Of a DNA stretch of 64,000 nt, positions 15,720 to 51,031 are shown in pieces. Every line of letters starts with the position of its first letter. The stretch's first letter is position 1. Source of the stretch: Escherichia coli (GTDB lineage Bacteria; Pseudomonadota; Gammaproteobacteria; Enterobacterales; Enterobacteriaceae); the NCBI RefSeq assembly GCF_050920415.1, contig NZ_CP169309.1, one strand, 5' to 3'. The notes beneath the pieces were generated by a model, which saw only the letters and a list, made by a program, of their open reading frames with translations, was not told the DNA's origin and did not search any database. The position numbers were made by a program, and so were the translations under genes.

Positions 15720-17264
15720 TTACCCCTGTTGCTGCGTCGGTTGTTCACTCTGCATCGCGCTCGGCCCCAGACGGGCATATTTCTGCATCAGGTAGACTTC
15801 GGCGATTAAGAACAGGGTGTAAAGCCCTACGATCATGATCAGTGAGAAAGCCAGTTGTCCTGTGGTTAAAGCGGAGTGCGCGGAGTATGTCGGTAAGATG
15901 TCCTGTATCGCCCACGGCTGACGACCAAACTCGGTCATAAACCACCCGGCTTCAATCGCAATCCACGGCAGCGGCAAACTCCAGAGCGCCATTTTCAGTA
16001 CCCAGCGATGCTGGTCGATTTTGCCACGCAGCGTCTGGACAAGCGCAATCAGCATCACCAGTAGCAGCAGAGAACCACAGCCCACCATGATGCGGAAACT
16101 CCAGAATACCGGCGCAACCTGAGGTATCGCGCCACGCATCGCCGCCTGGTACTGTGCAGCTGTGACATGGTTCATATCCGGCGCATAGCGGGAGAGCAAC
16201 ATGCCGTAACCAAGGTCGCCTTCCAGCTCCCGGAATGCCTGCAACACATGCGGCTCACGATTGCCTTGCGATATTTCCTGCATTAACAGCCAGGCCATAC
16301 GTCCGCGTTGCAAGCGTGGGTAGGTTTCAGCCATCAAATTCTTCAGACCCGGCACGGGTTTATCTAATGAGTGAGTGGCGAGGATCCCTAGCAGCGCAGG
16401 AATTTTGATGGCAAAGGCGTTACGCTCTTGATCCTGTTCCGGCCAGGCAACTACATGGAACGGTGCAGGTGCAGGTTCCGTTTGCCACTCCCCTTCCATT
16501 GCCGCCAGTTTTACCGGTTGTACTTGCGCGACTTCATACGCAGAACTGTCTCCGAGTTGCAGCGTACCGATAATCGCCAGAGTACCGAAGACGGAACCGA
16601 TGGCAAACGAGCGTAATGCAACATCGCGCTCCCGTCCGCGCAGTAAATACCAGGCGCTGATCGCCATAATAAACATGGCCCCGGTCACGTAGCCCGCCAT
16701 TACGGTGTGCACAAATTTCACCTGGCTGACCGGGTTAAAGACCAGCTCGCTGAAGCTGGTCATTTCCATACGAAGGGTGTCGATATCAAAATGCGCACCG
16801 GTCGGGTATTGCATCCAACCGTTGGCATTCAATATCCACAACGCAGAGAGATTTGAACCGAACGCCACCAGCCACGTCACCAGCAGGTGCTGGTATTTAT
16901 TCAGCCGTTGCCAGCCGAAGAAGAATAGCCCGACAAAGGTGGATTCGAGGAAGAAGGCCATTAACGCTTCCATTGCCAGCGGTGCACCAAAAATATCGCC
17001 CACATAGTTGGAATAGAATGACCAGTTAGTACCAAACTGAAACTCCATCGTCAGGCCGGTAGCCACGCCAAGAGCAAAGTTGATACCGAAGAGCTTACCC
17101 CAGAAGCGCGTCATATCGCGGTAGATTGTTTTGCCGGTGACCACGTAAATGGTTTCCATGATAGCCAGCAAAAAAATCAGCCCCAGGGTAAGGGGTACAA
17201 ATAAAAAGTGATACAGCGCGGTCAGAGCAAACTGCCAGCGCGATAAATCAATGACATCCCACAT
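15720..17264 (-). CDS. appC: Cytochrome bd-II oxidase subunit I
   Basis: CydA-like sequence ([28 protein letters not shown]...); start chosen at third codon of ORF. Confidence 0.9.
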
Positions 17265-17397
17265 GCGCACTCCTGTAGGCGAAGAGAGAAAAATAACCCG
17301 TTAATGGTAGATCTCCCTCTTTATCCTGAAACTCTACGACCAGAGGTATTCGCCGATTGCGATATTCATAAGCCTGAAAGCGATACTTACCGTCTTT

Positions 17398-18255
17398 TTA
17401 CGTCGATGCACCTTCCGCCAGCCACTGACATACCTCACTAAGCCGCTGCGCAGAGTCGACCAAATCTTCTGGCGCTGCCAGCACCACTTCAGGTATTGGG
17501 CAGATTTCGTAACTCTCAAGTAACGGGCCTTTTAAGGTGTCCGTACAGCGTAAATGCCAGACATGCCGCAGGCCGGTCGCGTTGATATAGCTCTCGCCGT
17601 AGCCAATGGTGCGAATCTGAATATTTCCCGGCCCACAGAGACGTGAGAGAAAAAGCCGATCAGCCTCGCTGATAGGTAATTGCGTCAGATTAATGCTGTG
17701 CGGCTGCGCGTCAGGATTACGTACATGTGCTAGTAATTCATGCGCCAACGGTAGGCCATTCATCAGGCCATCAATGGGCGGCGGTAACAGCGAATCTGTC
17801 GGCAAGACGTTTTGCGTTGCCGCCTGCCACAATGCCAGCGGCGCGCAGCCAGCCTCCAGTTTGTCCTCCAGCAACTGTTCGCCGCAACGTCTGCGCACCC
17901 GCCATAATCCGCAGAAGATCGCCTCCTGTATTTCACTTTCACTGTCGTCAGCCTGCTGAATGCGCACTGACACTTCCCCTTCCCCGAGAAGCGTATTGAT
18001 AAAGTGACGATCGTCGGCGTTGAGATTTAACAGATCGACTGCCAGCACCTCGCCCAGCGGCGGCTGGCGCTCGCTTAGCTGATGTTGTAACTCGTTTAAT
18101 AGCGCAATCACCTGCGGGCTGTGAGCACATTGCTCCAGGGCCGCCATACTCGGTTCATCATTCACCTGACAGGTGATCGGCAGTGGATTCATGCTGAAAC
18201 TGTCATCGTTCGGTTGGGTTCCTGGCCCCAGCAGATGGAAAAAAGTTTCGCTCAT
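17398..18255 (-). CDS. hyaF: HyaF, hydrogenase-1 operon protein
   Basis: Last gene of hya operon; start at internal Met [12 protein letters not shown]; overlaps hyaE 3' end. Confidence 0.85.
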
Positions 18256-18650
18256 GAGGCACGCTCCTGTTGCGGTTCGACAAGCCCGCGCATCAGGTTT
18301 ATCAGTTCCGCCCACGGGTGAATACCATTCAGCACGCCGCGATAGCTACCACCGGTAAACACCAGTGTGGCGGGAAAACGAAATACGCCAAAACGATCAC
18401 CGATGGCTTCGCTTTGCTCAAGGTCGGCAATCGCTACCTGCCATGTATAATCAGGAAACTCGCGCAGTAATTCGCCAATCATTACCGGATTATCGCTGAC
18501 CTCTGGCGTGCGTTTCGGGTCACTGCTTAATAACACCACACCGTCTGGCGCTTGCGTAAGCCAGTCGTCAAGACGGGATTCACTGATCGGCGTCCAGCCG
18601 CGCGCCAGCATACGTTGCCACAACGCATCAAATGGCGTGTCGTTGCTCAT
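18252..18650 (-). CDS. hyaE: HyaE, hydrogenase-1 Tat-proofreading chaperone
   Basis: 132-aa ORF, operon position, overlaps hyaD stop. Confidence 0.85.
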
Positions 18651-33306: not shown

Positions 33307-33753
33307 ATGCGTACCGTTTTGAACATTCTGAACTTTGTGCTTGGCGGATTTGCCACCACTCTGGGCTGGCTGTTGGCGACTCTGGTCAGTATTGTGCTAA
33401 TTTTTACCTTACCGCTGACACGATCCTGCTGGGAGATCACTAAACTGTCTCTGGTGCCTTATGGCAATGAAGCTATTCATGTCGATGAACTGAACCCGGC
33501 TGGCAAAAATGTGCTGCTGAATACTGGCGGTACGGTATTGAATATTTTCTGGCTGATTTTCTTTGGCTGGTGGTTATGCCTGATGCACATTGCAACGGGC
33601 ATCGCACAATGTATTTCCATCATTGGCATTCCTGTCGGCATTGCGAACTTTAAAATTGCCGCTATTGCACTATGGCCGGTCGGTCGTCGCGTGGTATCGG
33701 TAGAAACAGCGCAAGCTGCGCGTGAAGCCAATGCACGTCGTCGTTTTGAATAA
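33307..33753 (+). CDS. yccF: Inner-membrane protein YccF
   Basis: 148-aa hydrophobic ORF; synteny. Confidence 0.88.
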   Translation: MRTVLNILNFVLGGFATTLGWLLATLVSIVLIFTLPLTRSCWEITKLSLVPYGNEAIHVDELNPAGKNVLLNTGGTVLNIFWLIFFGWWLCLMHIATGIAQCISIIGIPVGIANFKIAAIALWPVGRRVVSVETAQAAREANARRRFE

Positions 33754-33771
33754 TCCACTAATATGGCCTTT

Positions 33772-35925
33772 ATGCTAAGTCCTTTGCTCAAACGCTATAC
33801 CTGGAACAGCGCCTGGCTGTATTACGCGCGTATTTTTATTGCGCTTTGTGGAACCACAGCGTTTCCGTGGTGGCTGGGTGATGTAAAACTGACGATTCCG
33901 CTGACGCTGGGGATGGTGGCAGCGGCGCTGACAGATCTCGATGACCGGCTGGCGGGACGTTTGCGTAACCTCATCATTACGCTGTTCTGCTTTTTTATCG
34001 CCTCGGCCTCAGTAGAATTGCTGTTTCCCTGGCCCTGGCTATTTGCAATTGGTTTAACGCTCTCTACCAGCGGCTTCATTTTGCTCGGCGGTCTGGGTCA
34101 ACGCTATGCAACAATTGCCTTCGGTGCGTTACTGATCGCCATTTACACTATGTTGGGGACGTCACTGTATGAGCACTGGTATCAGCAGCCGATGTATCTG
34201 CTGGCCGGTGCCGTCTGGTACAACGTCCTGACACTTATTGGTCATCTACTGTTCCCGGTCCGCCCGCTGCAGGACAACCTGGCGCGTTGCTATGAACAAC
34301 TGGCGCGTTACCTTGAGCTCAAGTCACGCATGTTTGATCCTGATATTGAAGATGAAAGCCAGGCACCGCTGTACGATTTGGCTCTCGCCAACGGTCAGCT
34401 GATGGCGACATTGAATCAGACGAAACTCTCGCTGCTGACCCGCTTACGTGGCGATCGTGGTCAACGGGGAACGCGTCGCACGCTGCATTATTACTTTGTC
34501 GCGCAGGATATTCACGAGCGTGCCAGCTCTTCTCATATTCAGTATCAAACATTGCGTGAACATTTTCGCCACAGCGACGTGCTGTTCCGTTTTCAGCGAC
34601 TGATGTCGATGCAGGGCCAGGCGTGCCAGCAACTGTCACGCTGTATTTTGCTGCGTCAGCCTTATCAACATGATCCGCATTTTGAGCGCGCTTTTACGCA
34701 TATTGATGCTGCGCTAGAGCGGATGCGCGATAACGGCGCGCCTGCCGATTTACTCAAAACACTGGGATTTTTGCTGAACAATTTACGCGCTATTGATGCC
34801 CAACTGGCAACAATTGAATCAGAACAGGCCCAGGCACTGCCCCATAATAATGACGAAAATGAGCTCGCTGATGACAGCCCGCACGGATTGAGTGATATCT
34901 GGCTGCGTCTTAGCCGTCACTTCACACCGGAATCCGCCCTCTTCCGTCATGCGGTAAGAATGTCGCTGGTGTTGTGCTTCGGCTACGCCATCATTCAGAT
35001 AACCGGAATGCATCACGGGTATTGGATCTTGCTGACAAGTTTGTTTGTCTGCCAGCCAAACTATAACGCCACGCGCCACCGCCTGAAGTTAAGGATTATT
35101 GGTACGCTGGTAGGTATCGCCATTGGCATTCCTGTGCTGTGGTTTGTGCCGTCACTGGAAGGGCAGCTGGTGCTGCTGGTTATTACCGGCGTGCTCTTTT
35201 TTGCCTTCCGTAACGTGCAATATGCCCATGCAACGATGTTCATCACACTTTTGGTGCTACTTTGTTTTAACTTGCTGGGTGAAGGTTTCGAAGTGGCGTT
35301 ACCTCGCGTAATCGATACGCTGATTGGTTGTGCCATTGCGTGGGCGGCGGTGAGCTACATCTGGCCTGACTGGAAGTTTCGCAATCTGCCGCGCATGCTC
35401 GAACGTGCCACCGAGGCCAACTGTCGCTATCTCGATGCCATACTGGAGCAATACCATCAGGGGCGTGATAACCGTCTGGCGTATCGTATTGCCCGCCGCG
35501 ATGCACACAACCGTGATGCTGAACTGGCGTCGGTGGTATCAAATATGTCCAGCGAGCCGAACGTTACCCCGCAAATTCGCGAGGCCGCGTTTCGGTTGCT
35601 GTGCCTTAACCATACGTTTACCAGCTATATCTCAGCCCTCGGTGCTCACCGGGAGCAGTTAACTAATCCTGAAATTCTGGCGTTTCTTGATGACGCAGTT
35701 TGCTATGTTGATGACGCGCTACATCATCAACCTGCTGATGAAGAACGCGTCAATCAGGCATTAGCTGACCTGAAACAGCGGATGCAGCAACTTGAACCAC
35801 GGGCAGACAGCAAAGAACCTCTGGTCGTACAACAAGTCGGGTTATTGATTGCATTACTGCCAGAGATTGGTCGTCTGCAACGCCAGATTACTCAAGTTCC
35901 GCAGGAAACTCCTGTTTCGGCGTAA
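33772..35925 (+). CDS. yccS: Inner-membrane protein YccS (FUSC/YccS family)
   Basis: About 717-aa polytopic ORF; start uncertain by a few codons. Confidence 0.85.
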   Translation: MLSPLLKRYTWNSAWLYYARIFIALCGTTAFPWWLGDVKLTIPLTLGMVAAALTDLDDRLAGRLRNLIITLFCFFIASASVELLFPWPWLFAIGLTLSTSGFILLGGLGQRYATIAFGALLIAIYTMLGTSLYEHWYQQPMYLLAGAVWYNVLTLIGHLLFPVRPLQDNLARCYEQLARYLELKSRMFDPDIEDESQAPLYDLALANGQLMATLNQTKLSLLTRLRGDRGQRGTRRTLHYYFVAQDIHERASSSHIQYQTLREHFRHSDVLFRFQRLMSMQGQACQQLSRCILLRQPYQHDPHFERAFTHIDAALERMRDNGAPADLLKTLGFLLNNLRAIDAQLATIESEQAQALPHNNDENELADDSPHGLSDIWLRLSRHFTPESALFRHAVRMSLVLCFGYAIIQITGMHHGYWILLTSLFVCQPNYNATRHRLKLRIIGTLVGIAIGIPVLWFVPSLEGQLVLLVITGVLFFAFRNVQYAHATMFITLLVLLCFNLLGEGFEVALPRVIDTLIGCAIAWAAVSYIWPDWKFRNLPRMLERATEANCRYLDAILEQYHQGRDNRLAYRIARRDAHNRDAELASVVSNMSSEPNVTPQIREAAFRLLCLNHTFTSYISALGAHREQLTNPEILAFLDDAVCYVDDALHHQPADEERVNQALADLKQRMQQLEPRADSKEPLVVQQVGLLIALLPEIGRLQRQITQVPQETPVSA

Positions 35926-36517
35926 GAGAGTCAGCCCATTCTGCAAGCTCCTGGCGGCGTGCCACCGGGAGCGCAGCTTCATGAATGCCGATAATGGCCC
36001 CTTCAAGCATAAACAGAATCTTTTCTGTCACCAGACTGTTTTGCTGCCGCAGTCGCAACCAACACATTTTTGCCCCAAGTATACGTAACGCCCGTACATC
36101 CTTAATCCCCACCTCCCCGAGTATCGCTTCCAGATGAAAAGACATATTGGGCAAATCTTTCAGTCTTTCCCGGGTATTGCGCGTGCTTTTCTCTTTCAGC
36201 GCTGCATCGAGAGAATATTTCGACAGACGCACCAGCTTCAGTTGATTTCGCCATAGACTTTCATCAACCCGATAGTAATTGAGGGTAACGGATCGGCCAC
36301 ACTTTTTATATGTCAGCCAGACAGGCGGATGTTTTACACAGTACTGTGCACTTTGCTCACAAGCCCGAAGATACAACTCACCATCAGAAACCATCGCAAA
36401 CACCGTGTCGTCAACGGTCAGGCTGTAACTACCAAACAATGATCGGTATTCAATTGTGCCCAACGTTGCCAGGTATTCTTGTGATTTATAGATCCGCTTA
36501 TAGGAGAGGCTTTTCAT
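35888..36517 (-). CDS. sxy: Sxy/TfoX competence regulator
   Basis: 209 aa MKSLSYKRIYKSQEYLATLGTIEYRSLFGSYSL...; 3' end overlaps yccS 3' end by 38 nt. Confidence 0.9.
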   Translation of the reverse strand: MKSLSYKRIYKSQEYLATLGTIEYRSLFGSYSLTVDDTVFAMVSDGELYLRACEQSAQYCVKHPPVWLTYKKCGRSVTLNYYRVDESLWRNQLKLVRLSKYSLDAALKEKSTRNTRERLKDLPNMSFHLEAILGEVGIKDVRALRILGAKMCWLRLRQQNSLVTEKILFMLEGAIIGIHEAALPVARRQELAEWADSLTPKQEFPAELE

Positions 36518-36693
36518 AAAATTCCTTTTAAAATCATAACATAAAAGAATGATTCACATTAACGGATCCGTTAACTACGAAAATAGGCAACTTATTCTTA
36601 AGGGGCAAGATTAATTTATGTTTTCCCGTCACTAACGACAAAATTTGCGAGGCTCTTTCCGAAAATAGGGTTGATCTTTGTCGTCACTGGATG

Positions 36694-36713
36694 TACTGTA
36701 CATCCATACAGTA
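36694..36713. promoter_or_regulatory. LexA (SOS) box in sulA promoter
   Basis: TACTGTACATCCATACAGTA, palindromic CTGT-N8-ACAG, 23 nt upstream of sulA start. Confidence 0.85.
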
Positions 36714-36735
36714 ACTCACAGGGGCTGGATTGATT

Positions 36736-37245
36736 ATGTACACTTCAGGCTATGCACATCGTTCTTCGTCGTTCTCATCCGCAGCAAGTAAAATTGCGCG
36801 TGTCTCTACGGAAAACACTACAGCCGGGCTTATCAGTGAAGTTGTCTATCGCGAAGATCAGCCCATGATGACGCAACTTCTACTGTTGCCATTGTTACAG
36901 CAACTCGGTCAGCAATCGCGCTGGCAACTCTGGTTAACACCGCAACAAAAACTGAGTCGGGAATGGGTACAGGCATCTGGGCTACCCTTAACGAAAGTGA
37001 TGCAGATTAGCCAGCTCTCCCCTTGCCACACTGTGGAGTCAATGGTTCGCGCTTTACGCACGGGCAATTACAGTGTGGTGATCGGTTGGTTGGCAGATGA
37101 TTTGACTGAAGAAGAGCATGCTGAACTTGTTGATGCGGCAAATGAAGGTAACGCTATGGGGTTTATTATGCGTCCGGTAAGCGCATCCTCTCACGCAACG
37201 AGACAACTTTCCGGGCTAAAAATTCACTCTAATTTGTATCATTAA
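36736..37245 (+). CDS. sulA: SulA, SOS cell-division inhibitor
   Basis: 169 aa [38 protein letters not shown]... Confidence 0.93.
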
Positions 37246-37601
37246 GTAAATTTAGGAGTAATCCTGGAACTTTTTTTGTCGCCCAGCCAATGCTTTCAGT
37301 CGTGACTAATATTCCTTGCGAAGTCTTGTCTGAAGCGGTTTCCGCGATTTTCCTCTGTAAATTGCCGCTGACAAAAAAGATTAAACATACCTTATACAAG
37401 ACTTTTTTTTCATATGCCTGACGGAGTTCACACTTGTAAGTTTTCAACTACGTTGTAGACTTTACATCGCCAGGGGTGCTCGGCATAAGCCGAAGATATC
37501 GGTAGAGTTAATATTGAGCAGATCCCCCGGTGAAGGATTTAACCGTGTTATCTCGTTGGAGATATTCATGGCGTATTTTGGATGATAACGAGGCGCAAAA
37601 A

Positions 37602-38654
37602 ATGAAAAAGACAGCTATCGCGATTGCAGTGGCACTGGCTGGTTTCGCTACCGTAGCGCAGGCCGCTCCGAAAGATAACACCTGGTACACTGGTGCTAAA
37701 CTGGGCTGGTCCCAGTACCATGACACTGGTTTCATCAACAACAATGGTCCGACCCACGAAAACCAACTGGGTGCAGGTGCTTTTGGTGGTTACCAGGTTA
37801 ACCCGTATGTTGGCTTTGAAATGGGTTACGACTGGTTAGGTCGTATGCCGTACAAAGGCGACAACATCAATGGCGCATATAAAGCTCAGGGCGTTCAACT
37901 GACCGCCAAACTGGGTTACCCAATCACTGACGATCTGGACATCTACACTCGTCTGGGTGGTATGGTATGGCGTGCAGACACCAAGGCTAACGTACCTGGT
38001 GGCGCATCCTTTAAAGACCACGATACCGGTGTTTCTCCGGTCTTCGCTGGCGGTGTTGAGTACGCGATCACTCCTGAAATCGCTACCCGTCTGGAATACC
38101 AGTGGACCAACAACATCGGTGACGCACACACCATCGGTACTCGTCCGGACAACGGCCTGCTGAGCCTGGGTGTTTCCTACCGTTTCGGTCAGGGCGAAGC
38201 AGCTCCAGTAGTTGCTCCGGCACCAGCTCCGGCACCGGAAGTACAGACCAAGCACTTCACTCTGAAGTCTGACGTTCTGTTCAACTTCAACAAAGCAACC
38301 CTGAAACCGGAAGGTCAGGCTGCTCTGGATCAGCTGTACAGCCAGCTGAGCAACCTGGATCCGAAAGATGGTTCCGTAGTTGTTCTGGGTTACACTGACC
38401 GCATCGGTTCTGACGCTTACAACCAGGGTCTGTCCGAGCGTCGTGCTCAGTCCGTTGTTGATTACCTGATCTCCAAAGGTATCCCGGCAGACAAAATCTC
38501 TGCACGTGGTATGGGTGAATCCAACCCGGTTACTGGCAACACCTGTGACAACGTGAAACAGCGTGCTGCGCTGATCGACTGCCTGGCTCCGGATCGTCGC
38601 GTAGAGATCGAAGTTAAAGGCATCAAAGACGTTGTAACTCAGCCGCAGGCTTAA
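37602..38654 (+). CDS. ompA: Outer membrane protein A (variant surface-loop allele)
   Basis: [21 protein letters not shown] signal, beta-barrel, [13 protein letters not shown] hinge, C-terminal OmpA-like domain; preceded by long 5' UTR. Confidence 0.93.
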
Positions 38655-38670
38655 GTTATCGTCTGATAGA

Positions 38671-38698
38671 AAAACCCCGCAGCTGCGGGGTTTTTTTT
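38671..38698 (+). terminator. ompA intrinsic terminator
   Basis: AAAAACCCCGCAGCTGCGGGGTTTTTTTT. Confidence 0.85.
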
Positions 38699-38730
38699 CG
38701 CCTTGCGTAAATTGAACTGACTTTCGACAG

Positions 38731-49921: not shown

Positions 49922-51031
49922 GTGGCGACATTAACCCGGCTTTTTATTCATCCTGTTAAATCGATGCGCGGCATTGGTCTTACACATGCTCTGGCAGATG
50001 TCAGTGGTCTGGCCTTCGATCGCATCTTTATGATCACGGAACTTGACGGTACGTTTATTACCGCTCGCCAGTTTCCCCAGATGGTACGGTTTACTCCTTC
50101 ACCTGTGCATGATGGCTTGCATCTCACCGCACCAGATGGCAGTAGCGCATATGTTCGTTTTGCTGATTTCGCCACACAAGACGCACCAACCGAAGTTTGG
50201 GGCACACATTTTACCGCGCGAATTGCGCCAGACTCGATCAACAAATGGTTAAGTGGATTTTTCTCCCGCGAAGTGCAATTGCGCTGGGTGGGGCCACAAA
50301 TGACCCGGCGCGTGAAACGCCACAACACTGTACCTCTGTCATTTGCTGATGGCTATCCTTACCTTCTTGCTAACGAAGCCTCGTTACGTGATCTCCAACA
50401 ACGTTGTCCGGCCAGTGTAAAAATGGAGCAATTCCGCCCCAATCTGGTGGTTTCCGGCGCGTCAGCCTGGGAAGAAGATAGCTGGAAAGTGATTCGTATT
50501 GGTGATGTGGTGTTTGATGTGGTTAAACCTTGTAGCCGCTGTATTTTCACCACCGTCAGTCCAGAAAAAGGGCAAAAACATCCGGCAGGCGAACCATTAA
50601 AAACATTGCAATCTTTCCGTACTGCCCAGGATAACGGCGATGTCGATTTTGGTCAGAATTTAATTGCCCGTAATAGCGGCGTGATTCGCGTTGGCGATGA
50701 GGTGGAAATTCTGGCAACGGCTCCGGCTAAAATTTACGGCGCAGCTGCCGCTGATGATACCGTCAACATCACGCAACAACCGGACGCAAATGTAGATATT
50801 GACTGGCAGGGACTGGCATTTCGTGGAAATAACCAACAGGTGCTGCTGGAGCAATTAGAAAATCAGGGAATTCGTATCCCTTATTCTTGCCGCGCGGGCA
50901 TTTGTGGAAGCTGCCGTGTTCAGCTTTTAGAAGGCGAAGTCACACCGCTCAAAAAATCAGCAATCAGCAATGATGGCACCATTCTTTGCTGTAGTTGTGT
51001 GCCGAAGACTGCGCTTAAACTAGCGCGTTAA
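49922..51031 (+). CDS. ycbX: YcbX, MOSC-domain protein with C-terminal 2Fe-2S ferredoxin domain
   Basis: 369-aa ORF; C-terminal CRAGICGSC ferredoxin motif. Confidence 0.88.

Follow-up and report, generated by a model that had tools for sequence, protein, structure and literature searches.

The genes yccS and sxy (tfoX) converge in the window analysed here, which is a stretch of 64,000 nt of E. coli DNA. At this chromosomal locus the gene order is helD / yccF-yccS / sxy / sulA-ompA / matP, where yccS comes second in the yccF-yccS unit and sxy is the sole minus-strand gene between yccFS and sulA-ompA. The features of the junction are as follows.

33763 to 35925, + strand: yccS coding sequence, 720 aa, a YccS/FUSC-like putative inner-membrane transporter (ORF list and RefSeq CDS with identical ends)
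35888 to 36517, - strand: sxy (tfoX) coding sequence, 209 aa, a coactivator of the CRP-S regulon (ORF list, RefSeq CDS and orthologues)
35888 to 35925, both strands: the overlap, 38 nt read both ways, both stop codons included
35923 to 35925, + strand: yccS stop codon, TAA
35888 to 35890, - strand: sxy stop codon, TAA (TTA on the + strand)
35890 to 35923: variable stretch, about 34 nt long, separating the conserved core of YccS (up to about residue 709) from that of Sxy (from about L198/W194) (alignment, junction table, conservation bins and simulation)
35901 to 35915, + strand: 6-bp hairpin GCAGGA-AAC-UCCUGU followed by UU only, Escherichia-specific and not a canonical terminator

The stop codon of each gene falls within the last 12 codons of its partner, and the shared segment encodes the last 11-12 residues of both YccS (...TQVPQETPVSA) and Sxy (...TPKQEFPAELE). 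The two lie on opposite strands with 3' ends that share nucleotides, i.e. they form a convergent overlapping protein-coding gene pair. Pfam domains, homologues and RefSeq CDS annotation showed that both are genuine genes. Sxy matched TfoX_N (residues 14-106) and TfoX_C (116-194), and 394 Sxy homologues were found; YccS matched FUSC-like (69-348), FUSC_2 (408-528) and FUSC (413-685), and its orthologues were 78-99% identical across all loci. The identical 38-nt overlap was annotated by RefSeq/PGAP in three E. coli strains, including one 91.6%-identical E. coli and one identical over the 1201-nt query, and the locus was found at an identity of at least 90% in 5425 of 5426 complete E. coli genomes.

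Since the 3' end of an open reading frame is set by its stop codon, the overlap carries none of the ambiguity that attaches to start codons. It is hardly credible, then, that one of the two proteins truly ends earlier and that the coding overlap is an artefact of annotation or sequencing. Such an artefact would agree with the variable length of orthologous tails (Salmonella Sxy has 201 aa vs 209 aa in E. coli) and with surveys that attribute many long convergent overlaps to 3'-extension misannotation. In the published survey, however, misannotation dominated at a threshold of 60 nt, above the 38 nt found here. The same stops were present in every Escherichia locus examined and in the RefSeq annotations, the wide presence of the locus among E. 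coli genomes argues the same way, and 76 of 80 species show an overlap independently of the E. coli stops. The original prediction of a 38-nt overlap at 35888-35925 was thus borne out by the sequence, the ORF list and the RefSeq annotation; it had named both genes and both stop codons correctly, and no orthologue showed either E. coli gene ending earlier.

Packing of the junction across Enterobacteriaceae

Fifteen Sxy proteins were aligned, and the alignment was used to fetch 80 species-level Enterobacteriaceae loci. Overlap length was determined by starting at the conserved codons for YccS P700 and Sxy W194 and reading on in frame until a stop was met. The results showed an overlap in 76 of the 80 species, so the E. 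coli overlap is not a strain-specific 3' extension. Together with one locus in which the genes abut (0 nt) and one with an 11-nt gap, a compact junction was present in 78 of the 80 loci, and the P700 and W194 codons lay 79 nt apart in 50 loci, with a range of 69-80 nt over the 78 compact junctions. Overlap length spanned 4 to 80 nt, the common values being 44, 23, 16, 7, 47 and 38 nt. It was 38 nt in E. coli and the cryptic Escherichia clades, 41 nt in E. albertii, 14-23 nt in Salmonella, 11-47 nt in Citrobacter, 44 nt in most Enterobacter and Lelliottia loci, 7 nt in Kosakonia, 4 nt in Buttiauxella and 80 nt in Trabulsiella. The remaining two loci carry insertions between yccS and sxy, of 249 nt (L049) and 2.3 kb (L051). 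The latter belongs to Superficieibacter electus, where two ORFs (200 and 425 aa) are inserted, and its Sxy and YccS still end in short tails despite the separation. As judged from these loci, the conserved feature is the tight packing, and neither the sequence nor the length of the overlap.

The control junction ompA/matP kept a non-coding spacer of 59-110 nt in 72 of 73 species and overlapped in none. The near-invariant length of the yccS-sxy junction was considered as a sign of selection, and was judged a weak one given that the ompA/matP spacer is also restricted in length. Separately, a junction with neither spacer nor terminator has been kept in about 95% of the 80 species; this is itself a form of conservation and speaks against a passive origin of the arrangement.

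The overlap expected at this packing was simulated by keeping the real E. coli flanks and shuffling or randomising the 34-nt spacer (35890-35923) in 20,000 trials. An overlap greater than zero arose in 92% of trials with shuffled and 91% with random spacers, its median length was 107 and 104 nt, and it reached at least 38 nt in 75% and 73%, respectively. With the conserved cores so tightly packed, the overlap is therefore not beyond chance and is the default outcome. Furthermore, the observed overlaps did not exceed 47 nt in all but three Trabulsiella loci and were mostly shorter than the simulated null, which fits selection against long C-terminal extensions and not selection for overlap.

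Constraint and RNA structure at the shared segment

In neither protein does a Pfam domain reach the overlap. Conservation of Sxy stops after W194, where TfoX_C ends, and the tails beyond it differ in sequence and length; in YccS, conservation reaches about residue 709 (PEI[CG]RLQ.Q.) and variation follows, the Pfam matches having finished by residue 685. Only about 34-46 nt separate the two conserved ends. Across the 80 species, the fraction of loci carrying the majority base was 0.54 in the overlap, compared with 0.77 where yccS alone is encoded and 0.72 where sxy alone is (junction +/-150 nt), and the overlap was the least conserved stretch within this range. The third-codon positions of the flanks gave 0.54 and 0.57, matching the overlap, and no 3-nt periodicity was found in the overlap in the 80-species alignment (0.49 / 0.58 / 0.54). 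In pairwise comparisons with Salmonella, Citrobacter and Enterobacter, the overlap diverged by 0.40-0.60, third positions of the flanks by 0.46-0.61 and the flanks as a whole by 0.26-0.41. Within Escherichia, two comparisons each gave 2 substitutions among the 38 overlap positions, counts too small to judge constraint. Conservation of the overlap above the neutral, third-codon level was not found in these comparisons, and at the level of sequence the shared segment appears to be without detectable constraint.

We next consider RNA structure. No terminator-like site was detected in or beside the overlap, and the regional motif count was at the level of shuffled sequence. The terminator scan gave no + strand site between 35696 and 36900, and the nearest - strand site (35562..35547) was weak. 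Fold z-scores at the E. coli junction were between -0.15 and -0.87 in 101-nt and 56-nt windows on either strand, with means over the 80 species of -0.03 (yccS sense) and -0.24 (sxy sense). RNAalifold predicted 0 consensus pairs at the junction, and Rfam returned no credible match, its only hit being snoZ168 at 36491-36568 at chance level (E 0.56). The hairpin at 35901-35915 has no U-tract, was missed by the terminator scans and differs in sequence in Salmonella, Citrobacter and Enterobacter. An intrinsic or bidirectional terminator at the junction was rejected on the scans and the weak fold z-scores, and a stable or conserved cis-regulatory RNA element on the z-scores, RNAalifold, Rfam and the neutral level of conservation.

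Three neighbouring convergent junctions, placed in the window by exact matching and compared as segments of equal size (56 nt), served as positive controls. Strong hairpins were present at helD/mgsA (z -3.2), yccU/hspQ (z -5.7) and ompA/matP (z -4.0), whereas sxy/yccS (z -0.7 and -0.9) has no terminator hairpin, and no structure is conserved there. The yccU/hspQ hairpin lies at 29252-29295. The missing hairpin is a real difference from the neighbours, one for which a passive origin of the overlap offers no mechanistic explanation.

Any mRNAs that cover both full coding sequences are complementary over at least 38 nt as a matter of logic. Without a terminator hairpin at the junction, the 3' end of a full-length yccFS mRNA is bound to be complementary to that of a full-length sxy mRNA, and each transcript presumably ends inside the partner gene.

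Origin of the overlap and its bearing on sxy

The arrangement has been described before. A catalogue of 165 convergent excludons drawn from 58 MG1655 RNA-seq samples, at least 50% of which had to show the excludon in question, includes the pair sxy-yccS (ExcludonFinder, Nucleic Acids Res 2025, PMC12288877). The listed pairs have short intergenic distance and conserved synteny, and 146 of the 165 have overlapping predicted terminators; the synteny of excludon pairs has been argued to be a sign of function, and p19 dsRNA capture is stated to be unfeasible as a validation for convergent excludons. Conway et al. (mBio 2014, PMC4161252) described the sxy and yccFS operons as converging and found complementary 3' ends in 276 of 370 E. 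coli convergent operons (75%), with a mean overlap of 286 nt, while Huvet & Stumpf (2014) counted 75 convergent CDS overlaps in E. coli. A closely matching strain has 11 convergent pairs in the 64 kb whose annotation was compared, and four of these overlap, namely zapC/ycbX (4 nt), yccX/tusE (4 nt), torT/torR (28 nt) and sxy/yccS (38 nt). Of the four, torT/torR lies just outside the window and the others inside it, and all are in the excludon list. The yccS/sxy overlap is thus real, ordinary, and already annotated and published.

When compared with known classes, yccS/sxy resembles convergent overlapping CDS pairs at large in that real opposite-strand genes share their last codons through stop-codon movement. 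Its 38 nt exceed the commonest overlaps, those of 4 nt at palindromic stops, but fall short of the 'long' class of 60 nt; unlike such pairs generally, it persists family-wide with variable length. An excludon in the full sense involves expression of one gene at the expense of the other and processing by RNase III, both of which would be hypothetical for sxy-yccS. Most catalogued excludons have overlapping predicted terminators, whereas no terminator-like hairpin was seen here. The convergent E. coli pair mscL-arfA also has complementary 3' regions and is in the excludon list; a regulatory effect is reported for it (PMC10070815), and none is reported for sxy-yccS.

A working convergent excludon was weighed as an explanation. 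In such a case yccF-yccS read-through antisense to sxy, or sxy read-through into yccS, would keep sxy low, and the absence of a spacer and a terminator would have been selected. We regard this as unlikely. The presence of the pair in the E. coli excludome might seem to favour it, but detection is automatic for overlapping coding sequences and silent on effect; the operons do converge, but so large a share of E. coli convergent operons overlap likewise that this is no distinction. As sxy is the only minus-strand gene before sulA-ompA, read-through from yccFS would be antisense to all of sxy, and an antisense brake would agree with PMC3330819, according to which no natural inducing condition is known for E. 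coli sxy. The tight junction, retained in 78 of 80 species, and its lack of a terminator hairpin near the stops, unlike the three neighbouring junctions, fit as well. Against this stand an overlap sequence that is unconstrained and the separation of the genes by 2.3 kb in one species and by 249 nt in another. Such an effect would come about through interference between polymerases or through cleavage of the RNA duplex by RNase III. That the terminator-less junction in particular was selected, so that yccF-yccS read-through or head-on polymerase collision helps to keep the competence coactivator Sxy silent, is in our judgement improbable; the pair would then be a working excludon in charge of a cryptic competence regulon. 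Were a selected antisense or collision brake of this kind real, the explanation of why E. coli sxy and the competence regulon stay off in laboratory conditions would gain a cis-antisense layer.

It is also very unlikely that head-on RNA polymerases define both 3' ends by collision-driven, non-canonical bidirectional termination. A preprint describing Ju et al. 2019 (bioRxiv 10.1101/2022.10.23.513370) reports such terminators as prevalent between convergent E. coli pairs, dissimilar to intrinsic terminators and independent of Rho, and the overlapping bidirectional terminators described there share with sxy/yccS the lack of room for two separate terminators. The junction indeed has no canonical terminator, and a small E. 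coli hairpin lies at 35901-35915. The stem-loop that this mechanism requires is nevertheless absent, as none at the junction is stable or conserved. Collision would moreover call for transcription from both sides, and sxy is assumed to be poorly expressed, from the same statement in PMC3330819. The published Term-seq 3' ends in the supplements of Adams et al. 2021 (PMC7815308) include no entry for sxy, yccS or yccF, and a literature search linking sxy and bicyclomycin gave nothing relevant.

Most probably, the overlap is a passive by-product of extreme packing and drifting stops, which leaves the two genes with a generic 3' complementarity that has no demonstrated consequence. YccS and Sxy have conserved parts that end close together, with neither a non-coding spacer nor a terminator hairpin between them, so that each reading frame runs on through a short variable segment until the first stop. 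Each protein thereby carries a short, poorly conserved C-terminal tail encoded opposite the tail of its partner. Stop codons would drift among lineages and the length of the overlap would change with them, while purifying selection would mainly keep the tails from lengthening. The transcripts would then end inside the partner gene through Rho acting on untranslated antisense RNA, polymerase collision or unspecific decay. Any antisense or interference effect would probably be generic and weak, as at most convergent E. coli operons, and not a dedicated control of sxy.

E. coli sxy is said, in the title of a 2015 paper by Jaskolska & Gerdes, to be under CRP-dependent autoregulation and proteolytic degradation. 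In our own scan, no CRP-S consensus site (TGCGA-N6-TCGCA, at most one mismatch) was found upstream of sxy, and matches elsewhere were at chance level. In Haemophilus influenzae, a 5' mRNA stem limits translation of sxy and is modulated by purine nucleotides (PMC2248739, PMC3739930). This is control at the RNA level within the same sxy/tfoX family, but it acts at the 5' end and involves neither the 3' end nor a convergent neighbour.

The original prediction had proposed that the overlap implies transcriptional interference or antisense pairing. The 3' complementarity stands, and RNA-seq studies report converging and overlapping transcription; the regulatory role does not follow. Its suggestion that the overlap may matter for the control of sxy was unsupported. 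Substitution in the shared segment keeps pace with that at third-codon positions, the length of the overlap among species lies anywhere between 4 and 80 nt, no conserved or stable structure was seen, and in one species two genes are inserted between sxy and yccS. Tight post-transcriptional regulation of sxy had been offered as the reason why the overlap might matter, but the documented mechanisms do not involve the 3' end. With no known control of sxy acting there, a regulatory link of the overlap is speculation, and 3' transcript overlap at 75% of E. coli convergent operons singles out nothing about sxy.

The outcome is negative, and cleanly so: the overlap is a consequence of packing, the codons that the two genes share belong to unconstrained tails, and the sequence gives no sign of 3'-end control of sxy. 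As a single member of the roughly 75 annotated convergent coding overlaps of E. coli, and of its 165 catalogued convergent excludons, the overlap matters little as it stands.

Variation of the sxy/yccS junction among Enterobacteriaceae

Among the 80 species of Enterobacteriaceae compared, the longest sxy/yccS overlap was found in Trabulsiella (loci L047, L065 and L073), reaching 80 nt. Here Sxy carries a tail of 26 residues, which is read antisense across the conserved end of yccS, and YccS reaches nearly to the codon of Sxy W194, the conserved anchor at the end of TfoX_C. The tight junction was broken in only 2 of the 80 species. Superficieibacter electus carries two genes between sxy and yccS (L051 4616-6901), one for a protein of 200 aa and the other for a membrane permease-like protein of 425 aa, and the Enterobacteriaceae MAG UBA5654 has a sxy-yccS spacer of 249 nt (L049 4625-4873).

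Other convergent gene pairs nearby

Three further convergent coding overlaps lie in the vicinity, and each is present in the published list of convergent excludons of E. coli (ExcludonFinder, NAR 2025, PMC12288877). The torT/torR pair falls just outside the window because the window starts in torS, so its position is given on L084, the reference-strain stretch used for annotation.

Convergent coding overlaps
window 27313-27316, yccX/tusE, 4 nt (CTAA), within the window
window 51028-51031, zapC/ycbX, 4 nt (TTAA), within the window
L084 30835-30862, torT/torR, 28 nt, just outside the window start

Compared with NZ_CP098223.1, which matched the 1.2-kb query at 100%, yet is not collinear with the full 64-kb window, offsets were observed at both ends, for example at the window start within torS, and therefore indels or strain-specific segments are present elsewhere in the window. 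In the reference strain (L084), etk (16381-18561) is annotated as a pseudogene with an internal stop, and ymcE (25421-25650) as frameshifted.

Transcription context of sxy

Three neighbouring convergent junctions have very short spacers filled by strong hairpins (z, RNA fold z-score), which look like bidirectional terminators, whereas the sxy/yccS junction is without a strong hairpin.

Convergent junctions with hairpins
window 29252-29295, yccU/hspQ, spacer 44 nt, z -5.7
window 31099-31129, helD/mgsA, spacer 31 nt, z -3.2
window 38655-38730, ompA/matP, spacer 76 nt, z -4.0

Within window 33307-38654, yccF-yccS and sulA-ompA all lie on the + strand, sxy between them is the sole gene on the - strand, and scanning the + strand 3' of yccS revealed no terminator-like site. 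Therefore, a transcript reading through from yccFS would cover sxy over its full length in antisense before entering sulA in the sense direction. A stationary-phase antisense transcript across sulA has also been mentioned (Conway 2014, PMC4161252), and this transcript would head towards sxy.
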